In this document: positions 18,342-25,622 of the stretch, piece after piece | Position numbering within the stretch: position 1 is the first letter of the stretch | Layout: every line of letters begins with the position of its first letter | Assembly: GCA_002919195.1 (NCBI GenBank) | Contig: PKEU01000149.1 | Location: forward strand, 8,130-72,129 | Direction: 5' to 3' | Length of the DNA: 64,000 bases | Source: a bacterium | Lineage (GTDB): Bacteria > Bacillota > Limnochordia > DTU080 > RSA5 | Notes under the pieces: generated by a model | What the model was told of the DNA's origin: nothing | Databases searched by the model: none | What the model saw: the letters and a program-made list of their open reading frames with translations, nothing else | Made by a program: the position numbers and the translations under genes

Positions 18342-19145
18342 GTGATCGAGTTGCGCGAAGAGATCGTCACACTTACCTTGGAGGACCCGCGAAGCGCCTC
18401 GACCTGCATCGTGTGCGACAAGCCTTTAGGCCTAGGGGCTCAAGCCGTCTTTTGCCCCCGCTGCAAGACCCCTCATCACCTCGGCTGCTGGGTCGAAAAA
18501 GGCGGCTGCGGCAGGCAAGGTTGCCGGCAAGTCGCCCATCCCGACCTCCTGCCAAAAAAGATCGAAGAGCCAATTCGTCCCTCTAAGACCCCTGCTTGGG
18601 TCATCTGGGCCGTCGTGCTGGGTTTGGTCTTCGTCGCCGGAGGACTCACGTGGAGCGCCAAAAACGCTTCGGAGCTGAGGGCGTCCACGATGACCGTCAT
18701 GGTCCCCTCCCTCGACGACGAAGGGCTCTGGCTTCGAGCCGTCGAGGCGTACAACCAGGACCCCGCCAACACCAAGCGACTCGAGCTCTTGTACACGCCC
18801 TACGGCGTCATGGGCAATGCCTACGACCAGAAATTGGTCGTGCTGATCGCCGCGAGAGACGGGCCGGAGGTGGTCGTCCTCGAACCCGACCGCTTCCGGG
18901 CGTACGTCGAACAAGGGGCGCTCTTGCCCTTGGACGACCTGGTAGCCGCCCTCCAAAATCAGGGCATCTCCTTTGACGCCGAGCGGCTTGATGCAGCTCG
19001 ATACGAAGGCCGCATCTACGGGCTCCCCCACCCCGAGCGGGACGCGTATTTGGTAGCCCCTGTGGTCTCCCGTCACGGAGGTGCGGGTGAAGACGTGCTC
19101 CGGCACCTGGCTGCCCACCTGTACCAAGACGCGCCCGGCAATTGA
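18342..19145 (+). CDS. membrane protein with N-terminal zinc-ribbon and extracytoplasmic domain
   Basis: CIVCDKP...CPRCKTPHHLGCW...C Cys/His cluster, one TM helix (AWVIWAVVLGLVFVAGGL), then a soluble domain of unknown function. Confidence 0.5.
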   Translation: MIELREEIVTLTLEDPRSASTCIVCDKPLGLGAQAVFCPRCKTPHHLGCWVEKGGCGRQGCRQVAHPDLLPKKIEEPIRPSKTPAWVIWAVVLGLVFVAGGLTWSAKNASELRASTMTVMVPSLDDEGLWLRAVEAYNQDPANTKRLELLYTPYGVMGNAYDQKLVVLIAARDGPEVVVLEPDRFRAYVEQGALLPLDDLVAALQNQGISFDAERLDAARYEGRIYGLPHPERDAYLVAPVVSRHGGAGEDVLRHLAAHLYQDAPGN

Positions 19146-19165
19146 CGGACCGGGCGCGTTTTGCC
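19131..19165 (+). terminator. rho-independent terminator
   Basis: 8-bp stem GCGCCCGG / CCGGGCGC around an 11-nt loop that contains the stop codon of the preceding gene, followed by GUUUUGCC. Confidence 0.5.
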
Positions 19166-19206
19166 TTGCGTGTCCTCTCCTGAGCACAAAAGCTGCGGCA
19201 GCTGGA

Positions 19207-19674
19207 CTACACGAGCCTACGGTATGCCCCTTGGAAAAAGATCAGGGGTTTTCCGCCCGGAGCGTCGAGAGCCTCGACTTTCCCCACGATGATCGTGTGG
19301 TCGCCGCCATCATAGGTGCGCCAGACGGTGCAATCTAGCCACGCCAAAGACTCCTTGATCACCGGCGTTCCCAAGCCTTCTTCGATAAACGTGACGTCGA
19401 TCGGAATTTCCCTGGCTCCCGCAAAGTGTCGGGAGACGTTTTCGTGGTCTTCGGCCAAGACGCTCACGCCAAACCTGCCCACTTCCTGGATCAGGGCGTG
19501 GGTCCGGTTGCGTTTGTCGATACAGACTAGCACCAGCGGCGGGTCCAAAGAGACCGACGTAAAGGCGTTGGCGGTCATGCCGTGAAGCCCCTCAGGCCCT
19601 TTGACCGTGATTACCGTCACTCCCGTGGCAAACTGCCCCAAAGCGTTGCGAAACGCCCGTGAGTCAAAGGTCAT
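19207..19674 (-). CDS. flavin reductase family protein (NADH:FMN oxidoreductase, RutF/HpaC-like)
   Basis: 155 aa; FRNALGQFATGVTVITV ... MTANAFTSVSLDPPLVLVCI pattern typical of the flavin reductase-like domain. Confidence 0.8.
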   Translation of the reverse strand: MTFDSRAFRNALGQFATGVTVITVKGPEGLHGMTANAFTSVSLDPPLVLVCIDKRNRTHALIQEVGRFGVSVLAEDHENVSRHFAGAREIPIDVTFIEEGLGTPVIKESLAWLDCTVWRTYDGGDHTIIVGKVEALDAPGGKPLIFFQGAYRRLV

Positions 19675-19823
19675 GTCGTTCCTCCCCGTACGCAGTCAAT
19701 ATCTCTTTCACCGTACCGAAAGCGGCGGGAGTTTGCAACTCTGTGGTACAATCGGGACGGATAGGCGCGCCGGCTCGAAGCTTAAAGGCCCAGGTCGCGC
19801 TCGATGCTTCAGGAGGAGTGCCT

Positions 19824-20447
19824 ATGCTGGAAATCCACGCCCTTTCCATCGGCCCGATCGCGACCAACTGCTACATCGTGCGCCACCCGTCAGGCCGGTG
19901 TTTTGTCGTCGACCCCGGTTGCGACTGGCAACCCATCCTCGATGCCGTACAAGGGCTTGAAGTGAGCGATATCCTGATCACCCACGCGCACTGGGATCAC
20001 ATCGGCGGGGTCGGCGCCCTCAAAGAGAAGACCGGCGCCCGCATTTGGGCCCCTGCGAAAGAAGCACACTGGTTGGCTGACCCTACTCTCAACCTCTCGC
20101 CAGGACCCCAGTTTTGGCCGCAACCGATCACGGCGCCTCCCGCCGACGAGCTCTTGGAAGGTGGCGAGACGATCCAGCTCTTGGGAGAGGTGATCGAGGT
20201 GCGGGCCACACCCGGCCACTCCCCGGGGCACCTCTCCTACGTGATGGGCGACGTCGTCTTTGGCGGAGACGTCCTCTTTGCCGGCTCGGTGGGACGCACC
20301 GACCTTCCCGGAGGCGACTGGGAGTTGCTCCTTCGAAGCATCCGCGAACAGCTTTTTACGCTGGATCCCAAGACGACGGTTTTGCCGGGCCACGGTCCGG
20401 CGACGACCATCGAGCGGGAGATGCAGACCAATCCGTTCCTCCGGTAA
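19824..20447 (+). CDS. MBL-fold metallo-hydrolase (hydroxyacylglutathione hydrolase-like)
   Basis: ITHAHWDHIGG (HxHxDH), later H and D ligands, GHSPGH. Start ATG 19824 with AGGAGG 8 nt upstream. An extended -10 TGGTACAAT lies about 19744-19752. Confidence 0.8.
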   Translation: MLEIHALSIGPIATNCYIVRHPSGRCFVVDPGCDWQPILDAVQGLEVSDILITHAHWDHIGGVGALKEKTGARIWAPAKEAHWLADPTLNLSPGPQFWPQPITAPPADELLEGGETIQLLGEVIEVRATPGHSPGHLSYVMGDVVFGGDVLFAGSVGRTDLPGGDWELLLRSIREQLFTLDPKTTVLPGHGPATTIEREMQTNPFLR

Positions 20448-20473
20448 GGTTCGCCCTTTTCTCCCAGAAATGA

Positions 20474-20502
20474 TTGACGGTGGACGAGCCCCTGGGTATA
20501 AT
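20474..20502 (+). promoter_or_regulatory. sigma-A-type promoter for the aroF leader transcript
   Basis: -35 TTGACG (20474-20479), 17-nt spacer, -10 TATAAT (20497-20502). Confidence 0.6.
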
Positions 20503-20552
20503 GATCTCAACTTCTTTGATCGATCCAGCAGAGCCTACGGGAGGTGCACACG

Positions 20553-20642
20553 GTGCGGGCCGTCATCCAGCGCGAACAGAGCATGGCTTGGGGCTTTTTC
20601 GCTTTTGGGTACTGGTACGGCTTTCCGTATCGTGTGCCCTAA
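20553..20642 (+). CDS. candidate aromatic-amino-acid-rich leader peptide of the DAHP synthase attenuator
   Basis: From GTG 20553 (GGGAGGTG SD 6 nt upstream) to TAA 20640-20642: MRAVIQREQSMAWGFFAFGYWYGFPYRVP. The last 16 codons contain 4 Phe, 3 Tyr and 2 Trp. Alternative ATG start at 20583 has a weak SD. Confidence 0.6.
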   Translation: MRAVIQREQSMAWGFFAFGYWYGFPYRVP

Positions 20643-20728
20643 AGCGAGTCGCCTCTAGAGAGGACGGGTCGAGGGCACACGAAAGCCCCCGGCCCTATTT
20701 TTATACGCATCATGCAGAGAAAATTTCA

Positions 20729-20765
20729 GGGCCGCGGGCTATAGCACCAGCGGCCCTTTCCTTTT
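20729..20765 (+). terminator. leader (attenuator) intrinsic terminator immediately upstream of the DAHP synthase RBS
   Basis: 7-bp GC stem GGGCCGC (20729-35) / GCGGCCC (20750-56) with a 14-nt loop, followed by UUUCCUUUU. An upstream segment GCCCCCGGCCCU (20685-96) can pair 11/12 with AGGGCCGCGGGC (20728-39), a candidate antiterminator. Confidence 0.55.
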
Positions 20766-20798
20766 GCAGGCGGCCATCACAAACTGGAGGGATGAAGC

Positions 20799-21596
20799 AT
20801 GCCACTAAATCCCAAGGAGTTTGTCGTCATTGCGGGACCGTGCGCCGTCGAAACCTACGAGACCACGCTGCAATGCGCTAAAGGCGTCCGCCAAGCGGGA
20901 GCGACCTTCTTCCGGGCGGGAGCCTACAAGCCCAGGACCAACCCCAGGTCCTTTCAAGGCCTGGGCGAAAAGGGTCTGGAGATCCTGGCCGCCGTGCGCA
21001 AAGAGACGGGCCTTGCCATCGTCACCGAAGTGATGGAGCCCGCCGCCGTCGAGAAGGTGGCCGCCTACGCCGACGTATTGCAGATCGGCACACGCAACAT
21101 GAGCAACTTCCCCCTTCTCAAGGAGGTGGGAAAAGCCCGAATTCCCGTGATCCTCAAACGTGGGATGGCGGCCACCCTGGACGAGTTCCTTCACGCGGCG
21201 GAATACATACTAGACGGAGGAAACGACCAAGTGATCCTCTGCGAGCGCGGGATCCGGACCTTTGAGACGTACACGCGCAACACCCTTGACCTCAGCGCTG
21301 TGCCGGCTCTGAAAGAGCGCGCCGATCTGCCGGTCGTCGTCGATCCGAGCCACGGCACTGGCCGCCGCTCGCTCGTGCCCCCCATGTCGCTCGCCGCCCT
21401 CGCCGCCGGCGCCGACGGCTTGCTCATCGAAGTGCATCCCGACCCCGACAACTCGTGGACGTCCGACGGCAAGCAGTCCCTCGACCTGGCAGGTTTTCAC
21501 CAGCTGATGGCCGACCTCAAGCGGCTCGCACCTCATTTTGGGCGCACGCTCCCTGTACTGCGGGAGCAGGCGGCGGCGCAAGCTGCCCGCCTCTAA
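20799..21596 (+). CDS. 3-deoxy-7-phosphoheptulonate (DAHP) synthase, class I-beta (KDO8PS-like fold)
   Basis: 265 aa; GAYKPRTNPRSFQGLG (KPRT[SN]P is the DAHPS I-beta signature rather than KdsA) and the DPSH metal-site motif. GGAGGG SD 7 nt upstream. Confidence 0.9.
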   Translation: MPLNPKEFVVIAGPCAVETYETTLQCAKGVRQAGATFFRAGAYKPRTNPRSFQGLGEKGLEILAAVRKETGLAIVTEVMEPAAVEKVAAYADVLQIGTRNMSNFPLLKEVGKARIPVILKRGMAATLDEFLHAAEYILDGGNDQVILCERGIRTFETYTRNTLDLSAVPALKERADLPVVVDPSHGTGRRSLVPPMSLAALAAGADGLLIEVHPDPDNSWTSDGKQSLDLAGFHQLMADLKRLAPHFGRTLPVLREQAAAQAARL

Positions 21597-21611
21597 ACGG
21601 CGCGAGAGCGA

Positions 21612-21683
21612 GAGCCTGAAAGGCCTTTCCCGTCAGGCTCAAAAAGAGATCACGGGCGGTTTACTCGCCCGTGATCTCTTTCA
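21612..21683. terminator. tandem hairpins forming a bidirectional terminator between convergent aroF and M42 peptidase genes
   Basis: Hairpin 1: GAGCCTGA...TCAGGCTC (21612-21640). Hairpin 2: perfect 15-bp stem AAGAGATCACGGGCG / CGCCCGTGATCTCTT (21644-21680), with a 7-nt loop, flanked by AAAAA upstream and TTT downstream. Hairpin 2 overlaps the last ~7 codons of the minus-strand gene. Confidence 0.55.
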
Positions 21684-22737
21684 CCCGGTCGGCGTCGAGA
21701 CGGCGAATCACCTCGACCATCAACCGGGCCGTGTTTTCCACGTCGTCGAGGTGCAGGATCCCGGCGTGGCTGTGGATGTAGCGGACCGGCACCGCGATGG
21801 CCAACGACGGAACGCCCCTGCCAAAAAGGTGCATCCTGCCCGCGTCGGTCCCTCCGCCTGCCATAGAGTCAAATTGGATAGGTATGCCGCACTCCTCGGC
21901 GACGTCGAGGACGAAATCGCGGAGCCTGCGGTGAGGCACCAGCGACGCGTCGTACAAGAGGATCACGGGGCCCTGGCCCAGCTTTTCTTGAGCGTCTTCC
22001 TTGCGGATCCCCGGTGTATCCCCGGCGACTCCCGTGTCGAGGGCAAAGGCGATATCGGGTTCGACCGCAAAGGTGCTGGTGGCCGCCCCCCGCAAGCCGA
22101 CCTCTTCCTGTACCGTAGCCACGCCATAGGCGGTGTTGGGGTGGGGGACCGACTGCAGCCTCTTGATGATCTCGACCACCAGAGCGCATCCGACCCGGTT
22201 GTCAAAGGCCTTGGCCATCACGTACTTGGGGTTGGCCAGGGGAGTGTACGGGCAGAGGGGAACGATGGGATCCCCCGGACGCACTCCCTTTTCCATAGCC
22301 TCTTCCCGGCTCGCAACCCCGATGTCAACAAACATGTCCTTCTTTTCGACGATCTTCTTCCGCTCTTCGGCCGAGAGGATGTGGGGCGGCTTGGAGCCGA
22401 TGACGCCCACAAGCTCACCCTTGCGGGTGTGGACCACCACCCGCTGAGCCAACATCACCTGCTCCCACCACCCGCCGAGGGTTTGAAATTTGAGGTACCC
22501 CTCGTCGGTGATCTGCGTGACCATAAAGCCGACCTCATCCATATGTCCCGCAAACATGATCCGGGGCGAGTCGGCCGAGCCTTGCTTCCTGGCGATCAGG
22601 CTGCCCAACCGGTCGCCGGAAAGCTCGCACAGGCCTTGGAGACGACTTTCCATAATCTTGCGCACCGGCTCTTCAAACCCCGGTACGCCGGGTGCCTCCG
22701 TCAGCTCCCTTAGCAGCTCGTTGATCGACTCCGACAT
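21661..22737 (-). CDS. M42 family metallopeptidase (glutamyl aminopeptidase / Frv-like)
   Basis: HMDEVGFMV..., DNRVGCA..., EEVGLRGA..., typical M42 metal-ligand motifs. Start ATG 22737 with GGGGAAAGAGG SD. Confidence 0.8.
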   Translation of the reverse strand: MSESINELLRELTEAPGVPGFEEPVRKIMESRLQGLCELSGDRLGSLIARKQGSADSPRIMFAGHMDEVGFMVTQITDEGYLKFQTLGGWWEQVMLAQRVVVHTRKGELVGVIGSKPPHILSAEERKKIVEKKDMFVDIGVASREEAMEKGVRPGDPIVPLCPYTPLANPKYVMAKAFDNRVGCALVVEIIKRLQSVPHPNTAYGVATVQEEVGLRGAATSTFAVEPDIAFALDTGVAGDTPGIRKEDAQEKLGQGPVILLYDASLVPHRRLRDFVLDVAEECGIPIQFDSMAGGGTDAGRMHLFGRGVPSLAIAVPVRYIHSHAGILHLDDVENTARLMVEVIRRLDADRVKEITGE

Positions 22738-22872
22738 CCTCTTTCCCCTTTCCGTGTCATCACTTTTGAAACGATTGGGCCGTCTCAACACCGCGTCAGC
22801 CAGCAGGCATTTGCCGTGGCGACTCGAACAGCATCAAGGAATCATGCGAAGCAGACGGGAGGACGTACCTCC

Positions 22873-23085
22873 ATGATCAGGCTCGGCCGCCTACTCTTTC
22901 TCCTTCTTGTCATCGCCGGCGTTATCGTAGCGCTGCGCCGCCTCAGCGAGCAGCACGTGCTCTGGAGCGACGTGGCCCTTACTGGACTCTGGTTTGTCGT
23001 AGGCTTGCTCGCTTTTTTCCTGCTCTTACTAGGCTTTGGCAAACTCCTGGGGCGTTGGCTATCCAGCGACAAGTCCCAAGAGTGA
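22873..23085 (+). CDS. small hypothetical membrane protein (2 TM)
   Basis: 70 aa from ATG 22873 (GGGAGGA 9 nt upstream); two hydrophobic helices. Confidence 0.4.
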   Translation: MIRLGRLLFLLLVIAGVIVALRRLSEQHVLWSDVALTGLWFVVGLLAFFLLLLGFGKLLGRWLSSDKSQE

Positions 23086-23092
23086 CTCCCTC

Positions 23093-23584
23093 TTACGCCG
23101 GGCGGACGATCCACGCAGCGAACCGGAGCCTTTCCCACACCCAAACGTAGAAAAAACTCCCTAGCCAAAAGCCGACCGGCGCCGGCAAGATCAGCCGGTG
23201 GGGAAACCAACCTCTCCAAACGTCGATTCCCACCACAGGACACAAGAGCAAGATGAGCCCGGTCAAGATCACGCTGTACCCCGCCGCGGTGAGCCGGAAG
23301 CGGTCCTGCTCGCTCAGCACAGCCAAAGCCAGTCCCCCCGCGCCCGCGGCGAGAAGCACGACGAGCGTGCTCAACCCAAAGGCGACCCAACTGGCCCAGC
23401 CGCCCAGAGCTTGAGCGACTTTCACAAAGGTGCCGACAGGCACGACTTCAAAAAGACGGAGGGCGATCAACTCCGGCGGAAAAGGCACAAGCTCCCCTAG
23501 ACGGGCGATGCCCATCATCGCGAGCGCCGCAGCGCCGGCGCCCACGCCGCGGATGAAAGCCCTGCGCGGCCGGACCACGGCCAT
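23093..23584 (-). CDS. hypothetical integral membrane protein
   Basis: 163 aa, 4-5 predicted TM segments, no recognised motif. Confidence 0.45.
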   Translation of the reverse strand: MAVVRPRRAFIRGVGAGAAALAMMGIARLGELVPFPPELIALRLFEVVPVGTFVKVAQALGGWASWVAFGLSTLVVLLAAGAGGLALAVLSEQDRFRLTAAGYSVILTGLILLLCPVVGIDVWRGWFPHRLILPAPVGFWLGSFFYVWVWERLRFAAWIVRPA

Positions 23585-23587
23585 CCG

Positions 23588-23992
23588 TTAAAGCCTCTCC
23601 TCACCCGGTTCGGGCGCCTTGCTCCGCATAAAGCGGAACAAAAGCGCGCCGAGGACGGTGACAGCCACGATCACCACCGCTTTCACGACCACCGGCATCA
23701 ACGTCATGAGCGTCCCGACCACAAAGAGCAAATAGGCGGCGATCAAGCCTCCGTAAAGCAGCGGGTCGACGACGTTGACGGGCTTTTTCGGCACCGGGAT
23801 AATTCCCAAGATGCGGAGCGGCTGGTCGACGGGATGAGCGTAGCGAAAGTCGAAGTAGGCGCCCGGACAACCCCGAGGGCAGGTGTACTGGCGCACATCC
23901 CGGTAAAGGACCATGCCCCGCGGGGTATGGCGGTAGTGCTCGCCTACCTTGTACACCATCTCTTCTCCGCAGACTTGGCACTTGCGAGACAT
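23588..23992 (-). CDS. zinc-ribbon-containing membrane protein
   Basis: CQVCGEEM...CPRGCPGAYF four-Cys ribbon followed by TM helices. Confidence 0.45.
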   Translation of the reverse strand: MSRKCQVCGEEMVYKVGEHYRHTPRGMVLYRDVRQYTCPRGCPGAYFDFRYAHPVDQPLRILGIIPVPKKPVNVVDPLLYGGLIAAYLLFVVGTLMTLMPVVVKAVVIVAVTVLGALLFRFMRSKAPEPGEERL

Positions 23993-24017
23993 CCCACCAC
24001 TGCCTCCTAACAGCGAC

Positions 24018-25622
24018 TTACCATCCTAGGGCGTAGCCGTCCCCCCGGGGATCTGCGGCTCCGATCAAGAGGTCGCCATCGATCCAAACGCCTTGAGCAT
24101 GGCCCATCACATCTTCCCAAGGCCCCACGACAACCACATCGTGGCCCATCTGCCGCAGATCGTGGGCGACCTTTTCCCCAAACCGGGATTCGAGGTACAA
24201 CCGGGCCCCCGCCCTTTGGGGCCCCACGTCCCCATGAAGCCACCGGGGTGCTTCAATAGCCTCCTGAAGATCCATACCGTGGTCAAACAAGTTGGAAAAG
24301 ACCTGCATATGGGTCTGAGGCTGCCCGTCGCCCCCCATGGTACCAAAGGCTAGCACGGGGCGATCTCCCTTAAAGACCATCGACGCGATCAGCGTGTGAA
24401 AGGGCCGTTTCCCGGGCGCAATCACGTTGGGGTGCGACGGGTCGAGCGAAAAGTAGGACCCGCGGTTGTGCAGCGATATGCCTGTCCCTTCGGGCACTAC
24501 CAGCGCGCCAAAGCCTTGAAAGAGGCTCTGGACACACGAGACGATGTTGCCGTGACCGTCCACAATGGCAAAGTACGTCGTCCCCCCCGGATGCGGTTGC
24601 ACTTCCTCAGGATCCACCGCGTGCTCGGGGTCGATCCGGCTCCGCAGCTCGCTCGCGTAACTCTTGGAAAGGAGTCGCTCGAGAGGAGCCTGGTAAAAGG
24701 CGGGGTCGGCCACGTGGCGATCACGCTCGGCAAAGGCTAACTTCTTCGCTTCGATCTGCAGGTGGAGCCTTTTTGCGTCCAGCCACTCCCCGCCCATCGC
24801 AAACCCTTCCATGATGTTGAGGCCGATGAGAGCGGCGAGGCCTTGAGTGTTGGGTGGCGTCTCAAAAATGGTATACCCCCGATACTCGGTCTGGATCGGC
24901 TCGCCCCATTCCGAGGAATGCAGAGCCAGGTCCTCCAGGGTAAACCAGCCTCCCAGCGAATCAGAGAGGTCGACGATCGCCCGGGCAATGGGACCTTTGT
25001 AAAACGCGTCGCGCCCTCCTTCGGCGATGAGGGTCAGCGATCGGGCTAGATCCCGCTGGACGAAACGGCTCCCGGCCTTTGGCGCCCGTCCCTGCGGGGC
25101 GTAGGTCGCGGTCCACGAAGGATGCGGATCGAGCTTTAACGTCGCGGCAATAGCCGCCGCCATCTTGTCGCTGATGGGAAAACCTTGATCAGCCAGCCGG
25201 ATCGCGGGCGCGAGCAGCTCGGCGACCGGGAGGCTCCCGTAGGCCTCGTGCATCGTAAACCAAGCATCGACGCAGCCGGGGACGCTCACCGAGCGGATGC
25301 CCCGCTGGGGCATCGCGGCCCCCGACTGCAACAACGCCACATCCGTCGCCGCGGGCGTCCTGCCACTGCCGTTGAGAAAACGGACTCGCCCCTCTTTGGC
25401 CCAATAGATCAGGGCGAAAAGATCTCCGCCAATGCCGCAAGCACCCGGCTGCGTCACATTGAGAACGGCGTTGACGGCGATCGCGGCGTCGACCGCGTTG
25501 CCCCCGCGCCGCAACACGTCGACACCCGCCAGCGACGCCAAAGGATGCGCCGACGCGACCATCCCGTGGTAACCCATGACGAGAGGGCGATGGCGCTTGG
25601 GCCGCAATCGGGAAGAGCTCAT
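24018..25622 (-). CDS. ggt: gamma-glutamyltransferase
   Basis: 534 aa; the GGT autoprocessing/nucleophile region (...LAFGTMGGDGQPQ...) and overall GGT family pattern. Confidence 0.85.
   Translation of the reverse strand: MSSSRLRPKRHRPLVMGYHGMVASAHPLASLAGVDVLRRGGNAVDAAIAVNAVLNVTQPGACGIGGDLFALIYWAKEGRVRFLNGSGRTPAATDVALLQSGAAMPQRGIRSVSVPGCVDAWFTMHEAYGSLPVAELLAPAIRLADQGFPISDKMAAAIAATLKLDPHPSWTATYAPQGRAPKAGSRFVQRDLARSLTLIAEGGRDAFYKGPIARAIVDLSDSLGGWFTLEDLALHSSEWGEPIQTEYRGYTIFETPPNTQGLAALIGLNIMEGFAMGGEWLDAKRLHLQIEAKKLAFAERDRHVADPAFYQAPLERLLSKSYASELRSRIDPEHAVDPEEVQPHPGGTTYFAIVDGHGNIVSCVQSLFQGFGALVVPEGTGISLHNRGSYFSLDPSHPNVIAPGKRPFHTLIASMVFKGDRPVLAFGTMGGDGQPQTHMQVFSNLFDHGMDLQEAIEAPRWLHGDVGPQRAGARLYLESRFGEKVAHDLRQMGHDVVVVGPWEDVMGHAQGVWIDGDLLIGAADPRGDGYALGW

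Follow-up and report, generated by a model that had tools for sequence, protein, structure and literature searches.

Short leader reading frames with codons for aromatic amino acids have been described upstream of aroF, which encodes 3-deoxy-7-phosphoheptulonate synthase (DAHP synthase). In Corynebacterium glutamicum, the leader peptide aroR with the residues F-Y-F is encoded upstream of aroF (Mentz et al., 2013; PMC4046766), and ribosome stalling on aroR raises expression of the aroF operon, with a response only to Phe limitation in the account of Neshat et al. (2014) that is given in PMC11802643. The aroR element has also been applied in strain engineering (PMC7356990). Furthermore, uORFC-13-1 is a predicted attenuator with a Phe-codon upstream open reading frame (uORF), which is defined by a run of U coding for at least one Phe and occurs exclusively 5' of aroF in Acholeplasma and environmental sequences (Brewer et al., 2021; PMC8632094), and an older attenuation hypothesis addresses aroF of Escherichia coli (PMC8632094; also PMC2659441). 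Control of aromatic genes by T-boxes or TRAP is covered by PMC1262725 in the part that cites Panina et al. (2003). Here we describe a leader 5' of a DAHP synthase gene in a stretch of 64,000 nucleotides (hereafter the window; contig PKEU01000149.1 of assembly GCA_002919195.1, positions 8,130 to 72,129 of the forward strand) from a bacterium affiliated with the Limnochordia (Bacillota). Judging from comparative and folding evidence, this leader is very probably a leader-peptide (ribosome-mediated) transcription attenuator that senses the supply of aromatic aminoacyl-tRNAs and controls DAHP synthase.

A leader reading frame rich in aromatic codons

The analysed gap comprises 350 bp between the stop codon of a metallo-beta-lactamase (MBL)-fold hydrolase gene at position 20447 of the window and the ATG of the DAHP synthase gene at 20799. 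A preliminary description of this locus had recognized a promoter (TTGACG, 17-nt spacer, TATAAT) and a small ORF starting at GTG 20553, 6 nt downstream of a strong Shine-Dalgarno sequence (SD; GGGAGGTG), all of which are present. The promoter matches 11 of 12 consensus positions and is the sole sigma-70-like site detected by a consensus scan across 19-23 kb of the window. In an alignment of nine relatives, its -35 TTGAC is invariant and its -10 TATAAT almost so, and the transcription start is predicted at approximately 20509-11. The small ORF is indeed rich in aromatic residues, with a trivial correction of the count from nine to eight in the last 16 codons (nine in the last 17). With seven Trp, Phe or Tyr within 10 residues, compared with five in the next best short ORFs, it is the only one among 562 short ORFs (15-60 aa, six frames, 64-kb window) that reaches at least six aromatics per 10 residues. 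Two other start codons were rejected: ATG 20583 (MAWGFF...) lacks an SD and is unconserved, with relatives placing their ATG at the position of GTG 20553, and GTG 20544, proposed by the ORF finder, falls within the SD.

Conservation of the leader among relatives

The closest homologues of the DAHP synthase (73-95% identical) originate from metagenomes and metagenome-assembled genomes (MAGs), one of which is labelled Limnochordia. The family set used here consists of 13 sequences, namely 12 distinct full leaders from Limnochordia-like Bacillota and the partial leader L222 (loci are designated by L and a number). The DAHP synthase identities measured for the 12 relatives are 73-85%. A scan of a genome collection with the DAHP synthase protein retrieved only relatives of at most 65% identity from many phyla and zero close ones, and its results served only the cross-phylum survey presented below. 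The uORF was found in the genomic context of every close relative examined, and the comparison of upstream regions that the preliminary description had proposed revealed a conserved aromatic-rich uORF with SD and start codon in 12 of 12 family members. It is kept in L081 and L082 despite a different, divergently transcribed upstream gene. In addition, a gene-agnostic metagenome scan with a loose DNA pattern of the leader returned at least 120 stretches, with at least five true leaders among the matches listed, the remainder being chance matches, and a DAHP synthase gene follows in the three true matches that were checked in the 3' direction (L172, L186 and L195). The different neighbour in L081 and L082, together with these pattern matches, indicates that the leader goes with the gene and not with the neighbourhood. 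The five true leaders are duplicates or near-duplicates of known sequences or of the window and leave the diversity of the family unchanged. The metagenome contig L177 (Ga0079224_100159907, 3257 bp) is collinear with the window from 17416 and carries the same leader up to the contig end; as just 12 of 161 sampled 40-mers are identical, it represents a different sequence from a closely related strain.

All 12 family members combine an SD with a spacing of 6-7 nt and an ATG or GTG start codon, the GTG of the window lining up with ATG in five relatives. The SD reads GGAGGTG in 10 of 12, with the single-base variants GGGGGTG and AGGGGTG in L091 and L096. The N-terminal part of the leader peptide is unrelated in sequence among relatives and the distance from the start codon to the aromatic core takes six values (45, 48, 51, 54, 57 and 93 nt), every one of which is a multiple of three. 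The core itself, F-G-Y-W-[Y/F]-[G/V]-F, is present in all members, and its changes are either synonymous (UAC/UAU) or exchange one aromatic residue for another (Y to F in both L096 and L221, and additionally F to Y in the latter). A frame that is kept over six N-terminal lengths and ends in a core that swaps aromatic residues indicates conservation of the uORF at the level of its translation. The relatives also retain the position of the stop codon beside the hairpin arm and the full set of helices described below. This pattern is as predicted for a translated regulatory leader, and on these sequence grounds a purely structural RNA appears unlikely.

Alternative hairpins in the leader RNA

The leader RNA of 291 nt folds with z = -4.4 relative to dinucleotide shuffles, and six segments (A to F, Table 1) account for its main helices. 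The unconstrained minimum free energy (MFE) structure consists of A:B, C:D and E:F. The A:B hairpin (within 20599-20647, -30.4 kcal/mol), overlooked in the preliminary description, pairs UCGCUUU and GGGUACUGGUACGG with CCGUAUCG, GUGCCC and AAAGCGA, placing the aromatic codons opposite the stop-proximal arm plus 7-8 nt past the stop codon. In C:D, GGGUCG and GGGC (20666-76) pair with GCCC and CGGCCC (20685-95; -20.1 kcal/mol) and are followed by UAUUUUUAUA, and this hairpin (20666-95) with its U-tract, likewise unnoticed in the preliminary description, resembles an intrinsic terminator (T1). The E:F hairpin is the GC-rich intrinsic terminator previously noted at 20729-65 (T2); its stem joins 20728-39 with 20744-57, is followed by UUUCCUUUU up to 20765 and has a folding energy of -21.5 kcal/mol. 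On the basis of the modelled folds, the leader thus probably contains two termination points in series. The consensus scan did not flag E:F, presumably because its 8-bp main stem encloses a loop beyond the 8-nt limit of the scan.

Two further helices are mutually exclusive with this arrangement. The 10-bp hairpin described earlier next to the stop codon (CGUGUGCCCU 20631-40 with AGGGCACACG 20672-81) is present and extends to 11 bp when folded locally, forming B:C (20630-40 with 20672-82, -33.1 kcal/mol). Likewise, the antiterminator pairing that had been proposed between 20685-96 and 20728-39 is present as D:E, which joins 20684-96 with 20728-40 through 12 pairs and one C.C mismatch (-27.0 kcal/mol for the folded segment 20681-20741). 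When the leader of the window adopts the antiterminated fold, T1's U-tract (20696-20705) additionally pairs with the A-rich GAGAAAAUUU (20719-20724) located 5' of E, which lengthens D:E. A separate pairing in the unconstrained fold of 20510-20800 connects the 5' end of the leader, UUUGAUCGAUCCAG (20515-20528), with the SD region of the DAHP synthase gene, CUGGAGGGAUGAAG (20783-20797); it is probably incidental, because the 5' untranslated region is unconserved in relatives.

Selection on these helices was assessed by permutation, comparing cognate with non-cognate segment pairs in their duplex energies; phylogeny was ignored, and the resulting p values are indicative only. A MAFFT alignment of whole leaders misregisters D and the outer A:B stem as a result of variable internal loops, and RNAalifold recovered only the invariant inner A:B helix from it. 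This alignment was replaced by anchored gapless extracts in combination with the duplex tests. Because the internal loops differ in size, column-based tools miss the covariation of the outer A:B stem, for which the cognate and non-cognate energies are -11.3 and -8.5 kcal/mol (p = 0.0002) and compensatory changes convert CGCUUU:AAAGCG of the window to CUCGUUCU:AGAACGAG in L084 and L088 and to UUUGCUUU:AAAGCAAA in L096. The C:D helix is likewise favoured in cognate pairs (p = 0.005) with 71% of cells paired, a count that is blurred by 1-nt indels. E:F is also favoured in cognate pairs (p < 5e-5); its cells are 86% paired, compensatory changes affect three pairs (e.g. U-A, C-G and G-C at one position) and the covariation score was reached by none of 500 shuffles. 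For D:E, 83% of cells are paired in 12 sequences compared with at most 56% in slid registers. In B:C, changes in arm C are one-sided and G.U pairs preserve the helix in L093, L094 and L096. The sequence CGTGTGCCC is invariant in nucleotides even where the reading frame differs (L091 and L221), and the invariance of arm B (CGUGUGCCC) in these two leaders despite their other frame shows that it is constrained as RNA. Furthermore, a U-rich tail after D (at least 6 U in 10) is present in 10 of 13 sequences.

The preliminary description had relayed the position of the ribosome to the antiterminator through a pairing of GGGGCUUU (20590-97) with AAAGCCCC (20682-89). These segments are complementary in the window (wider duplex, -18.3 kcal/mol), but the pairing was rejected as a conserved sensor, being specific to the window and showing equal cognate and non-cognate duplex energies (p = 0.66). 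The conserved route leads from A:B via B:C to D:E.

Ribosome position and the predicted fold

In constrained folding, a check that had been suggested together with the original attenuator proposal, a 31-nt mask around the A site mimicked the ribosome. With a ribosome at UUU 20604, UAC 20610 or UGG 20613, the leader of the window forms B:C (10 bp) together with D:E at the expense of the terminator, whereas placing the ribosome on UUU 20622 or on the stop codon yields C:D and E:F, and the free RNA adopts A:B, C:D and E:F. In silico, a stalled ribosome hence selects the antiterminator and a ribosome at the stop codon the terminator. Transcripts truncated at two decision points were folded for all 13 sequences. 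In RNA ending at D, corresponding to polymerase on the first U-tract, 11 of 13 sequences form B:C without C:D under a stalled ribosome, and all 13 form C:D once the ribosome occupies the stop codon. In RNA ending just before F, D:E forms in 11 of 13 with a stalled ribosome and is absent in 11 of 13 with the ribosome at the stop codon.

Proposed mechanism

The proposed attenuator is based on the sequence elements, their conservation, the maintenance of the reading frame, the covariation of A:B, C:D and E:F and the in-silico switch, and the comparative and folding evidence supports the earlier reading in which 20685-96 pairs with 20728-39 to prevent the terminator at 20729-65. From these observations, the transcription start, translation of the leader, ribosome stalling, termination at T1 and T2 and the physiological response are predicted as follows. 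Transcription would begin at approximately 20510, and a ribosome would initiate at GTG 20553 and translate the 29-codon leader, whose F-G-Y-W-Y-G-F core represents each of the three pathway end products by at least one codon. By default, the RNA would adopt the terminating fold with A:B, C:D as a probable first terminator and E:F as the main terminator. A ribosome that reaches the stop codon would cover B, leaving C:D and E:F to form and transcription to terminate. If charged Phe-, Tyr- or Trp-tRNA were short, the ribosome would stall at UUU 20604, UAC 20610, UGG 20613 or UAC 20616, thereby covering A and leaving B free to pair with C, which would block C:D. D could then pair with the newly made E, E:F would be blocked and polymerase would read through into the DAHP synthase gene. 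The leader would thereby work as an OR gate that responds to a shortage of any one of the three aromatic amino acids.

Several observations weigh against this interpretation. Covariation in D:E is no higher than in shuffles and its cognate test gives p = 0.08, which is explained by columns that are almost invariant, and the invariance of the core in nucleotides (UUUGGGUACUGGU) is equally compatible with constraint on RNA structure and with codon selection. The stop codon of L093 lies 12 nt further downstream, and D is followed by a weak U-tract or none in L091, L093 and L094 (3-4 U in 10). T1 may accordingly terminate transcription in some family members and serve solely as an anti-antiterminator in others. 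Complete leaders folded at equilibrium show the full switch in just 6 of 13 sequences, and the model consequently rests on the co-transcriptional order captured by the truncated transcripts, as in classical attenuators; the MFE of the whole transcript was judged the wrong model for a kinetic process and rejected as a test of the switch. Moreover, the in-silico switch is absent from L096 and breaks down at the first decision point in L091, and D:E does not form in L081, failures that may be due to poorly defined 5' ends. Finally, the truncated RNAs of the window and L088 still favour D:E at equilibrium with the ribosome at the stop codon, and termination in these two would need C:D to form first, which is a kinetic assumption.

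Table 1. Coordinates of the promoter, the leader and its RNA segments, and the DAHP synthase gene in the window
Feature	Position	Strand	Remarks
Sigma-70-type promoter	20474-20502	+	-35 TTGACG 20474-79, 17-nt spacer, -10 TATAAT 20497-502
Leader SD GGGAGGTG	20539-20546	+	6 nt 5' of GTG 20553
Leader uORF	20553-20642	+	GTG start, 29 codons, TAA 20640-42; predicted product MRAVIQREQSMAWGFFAFGYWYGFPYRVP
Segment A	20599-20620	+	5' strand of the A:B sensor hairpin; holds F, Y and W codons
Regulatory codons UUU GGG UAC UGG UAC GGC UUU (F-G-Y-W-Y-G-F)	20604-20624	+	Core kept in relatives
Segment B	20625-20647	+	3' strand of A:B; arm CGUGUGCCCU 20631-40, stop codon 20640-42, AAAGCGA 20641-47
Segment C	20666-20682	+	20672-82 pairs with B; GGGUCG and GGGC (20666-76) pair with D
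Segment D and U-tract UAUUUUUAUA	20684-20705	+	D 20684-95/96, U-tract 20696-705; pairs with C or E
Segment E AGGGCCGCGGGC	20728-20739	+	5' arm of the main terminator; alternatively pairs with D
Segment F and U-tract UUUCCUUUU	20744-20765	+	3' arm 20744-57; with E forms terminator T2
DAHP synthase gene (3-deoxy-7-phosphoheptulonate synthase)	20786-21596	+	SD GGAGGG 20786-91; ORF 20799-21596, 265 aa

Alternative explanations

The leader peptide terminates in Pro-stop in 11 of 12 family members, mostly as RVP-stop and as VCP-stop in L091 and L221, where a 1-nt deletion alters the frame (...TTVCP-stop) and moves the stop codon by one base (CCCUAA compared with CCCUUAA). Pro-stop is a slow-termination context, and TnaC also ends in Pro-stop. 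Its occurrence in two frames would suit a TnaC-like arrest peptide, in which an abundance of free Trp, Phe or Tyr would lead the core and Pro-stop to arrest translation at the stop codon, with the ribosome held on B and termination enforced. Such an arrest could replace the sensing of tRNA charge or act beside it, and ribosome dwell at the stop codon, which adjoins segment B, matters under any model. However, the residues between the core and Pro are unconserved (PY, TY, TT, TH or IS, followed by RV or VC), the invariant CGUGUGCCCU is fully accounted for as a helix arm, L093 is an exception that lacks Pro-stop and reads four codons further, and the classical model of attenuation requires no arrest. 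We regard an arrest peptide as unlikely; within the attenuator model, Pro-stop at 20637-20642 and its equivalents may tune the dwell time of the ribosome on segment B.

Firmicutes commonly control aromatic genes by T-boxes or TRAP, and conserved alternative hairpins could in principle answer to any effector. A trans-acting factor or ligand, such as a tRNA bound by a T-box, a TRAP-like protein or a metabolite bound by a riboswitch, could thus drive the switch and render the uORF incidental. Rfam searches of the window and of 16 related loci yielded no match at gathering score, which excludes a T-box or other described riboswitch, and a permissive scan of 20400-20860 (E up to 10) gave chance-level matches with no T-box and no leader family, confirming the lack of a T-box consensus that had been remarked on before; Phe_leader, Trp_leader, His_leader, Leu_leader, Thr_leader and leu/phe leader are among the families without a match. 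The weak matches to DUF3800-IX, BjrC68 and ctRNA are far below gathering score, involve only terminator-like hairpins and were dismissed as chance. An apical loop holding few GAG/UAG triplets was considered as a TRAP-like triplet array and rejected, as it is unconserved. Furthermore, invariant positions are located in promoter, SD, codons and helix arms, and the loops and junctions vary, which argues against the ligand pocket of a riboswitch. Frame maintenance over six lengths and the fixed spacing between SD and start codon would also be left unexplained if the leader were not translated. Control by a trans-acting factor or ligand with an incidental uORF is accordingly very unlikely.

Hardly credible, finally, is a hydrophobic micro-protein followed by ordinary terminators or insulators between the MBL hydrolase and DAHP synthase genes: the peptide is hydrophobic and aromatic with a conserved C-terminal half and two terminator-like hairpins do follow the small ORF, but a Pfam search with the leader peptide gave zero matches, its C-terminus is read in another frame in L091 and L221 although the RNA arm is invariant, the conserved alternative pairings B:C and D:E would be unexplained, constitutive termination between the promoter and its sole downstream gene would silence DAHP synthase, and other phyla repeatedly carry unrelated aromatic-rich uORFs 5' of DAHP synthase (15 of 74 loci, compared with none in the controls).

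The DAHP synthase gene and its neighbourhood

The DAHP synthase encoded downstream of the leader is of type I-beta, as identified by TIGR01361 (355.9 bits, cut-off 267.75) and additionally by PF00793. Its alignment with NF006421 covers profile positions 93-335 only, and the enzyme is thus core-only, lacking both the N-terminal regulatory domain and a chorismate mutase domain. Attenuation suits an enzyme that lacks an allosteric domain and may represent the main feedback on the DAHP step. The gene is monocistronic, with the next gene, encoding an M42 aminopeptidase, located on the opposite strand.

The order of genes at 18342-25622 of the window is conserved in L084, L088, L091 and L093 and comprises a Prok-RING_1 protein, a flavin reductase (HpaC-like, minus strand), the MBL-fold hydrolase, the leader with DAHP synthase, the M42 aminopeptidase (minus strand) and small ORFs. 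A gamma-glutamyltranspeptidase follows this conserved block in L088, L091, L093 and L096. In most relatives with shared synteny, the gap between the MBL hydrolase and DAHP synthase genes measures approximately 340 bp.

Aromatic-rich leaders in other lineages

A second, unrelated leader (...GFTYSWRFYFSFFFTRSVPVAGCTL) is located 5' of a 300-aa DAHP synthase in the Limnochordia MAG GCA_900198705.1 (L097:2170-2503) and in a Logan contig (L098). The DAHP synthase of L097 is 67% identical and has different neighbours, namely an XRE-type helix-turn-helix regulator and CodY. Its leader contains tandem terminator hairpins (GGCCGCAGG...CCUGCGGCC-UUUUCUU and GGGGCCGU...ACGGUCCC-UUUUUAUUUUU) and, with a layout equal to that of the family, shows the same in-silico switch with the ribosome on the late Phe codons and none at the earlier UAC.

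Among distant loci, 15 of 74 carry a uORF with at least seven aromatics in 10 residues upstream of a type I-beta DAHP synthase, and reverse complements and shuffles of the same regions gave none. Aromatic-rich uORFs were recorded in L005, L006, L016, L022, L029, L036, L040, L043, L048, L053, L057, L064, L069, L070, L072, L073 and L077. The distant uORFs lie at approximately 2500-2720 of the respective locus, and the DAHP synthases of these loci do carry the N-terminal regulatory domain. Examples include FYYYFYF in an Ignavibacteriae MAG, AYFFAFYFW in a MAG labelled Candidatus Caldisaccharidevorator (an Armatimonadota MAG carries a similar leader), and FNFWYYFYYYF and GFFFFFF in MAGs labelled delta proteobacterium, Thermodesulfobacteriota or Syntrophobacteraceae. 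The five clearest distant loci inspected (L005, L036, L048, L069 and L064) also contain a TTGACA-like promoter or a clear terminator. None of the distant aromatic-rich uORF leaders was matched in Rfam. A tRNA gene on the minus strand is located directly 5' of the promoter of the aromatic leader in L016 (2358-2430, Ca. Caldisaccharidevorator) and L029 (2362-2434, Armatimonadota).

These uORFs suggest that leader-peptide control of aroF is far wider than the two published cases, which may matter more than the element of the window itself and would be useful for genome annotation and the engineering of aromatic production. It has to be distinguished from a more ambitious proposition, namely that one 29-codon ORF integrates a shortage of charged tRNA (read-through) with an excess of amino acids (arrest at the stop codon, two serial terminators) and forms, with the unrelated uORFs of other phyla, a broad uncatalogued regulatory class, to which we attach little credence.

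Comparison with known systems

The window element provides a testable model for control of entry into the shikimate pathway in an uncultured Limnochordia-like lineage and adds a well-supported GC-rich leader family of approximately 12 distinct sequences that is absent from Rfam. The preliminary description considered its location at the DAHP synthase step and its mixture of aromatic residues unusual, which is overstated, as aroR and uORFC-13-1 precede aroF elsewhere. Within this known type of control, the element forms a separate sequence family and comes from another class of Bacillota.

T-boxes and TRAP occur in the same broad phylum, act on the same pathway and likewise operate by transcription antitermination. 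In contrast to these systems, the leader has no T-box match and no conserved (G/U)AG repeats, and according to the folding model it would need translation of the uORF. With hisL, pheL and trpL, the leader shares regulatory codons, alternative hairpins, an intrinsic terminator and the selection of the fold by ribosome position, and its chain of three hairpins (A:B, C:D and E:F as opposed to B:C and D:E) is the layout of enterobacterial hisL. The enterobacterial leaders differ in controlling terminal-branch operons through a run of codons for a single amino acid, and their Rfam models are unmatched here. Compared with hisL, the middle hairpin C:D has its own U-tract and the codons mix three amino acids.

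The similarity to uORFC-13-1 comprises the promoter, ribosome-binding site, start codon, Phe codons and an adjacent intrinsic terminator, and both are computational predictions. The Limnochordia leader is set apart from it, by description, through its GC-richness and its F-G-Y-W-Y-G-F core. As in aroR, a short mixed-aromatic leader ORF is located directly 5' of the DAHP synthase gene and addresses the same pathway step. The two are likened by description and not by sequence: aroR belongs to the Actinomycetota and has three regulatory codons with no Trp, and the DAHP synthase AroF of C. glutamicum is of type I-alpha. The Limnochordia leader, by comparison, includes Trp codons besides those for Phe and Tyr, has a chain of six segments and probably contains two terminators. 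It overturns no concept and offers a natural example of an attenuator that would combine three amino acids by OR logic and apparently chains two terminators.

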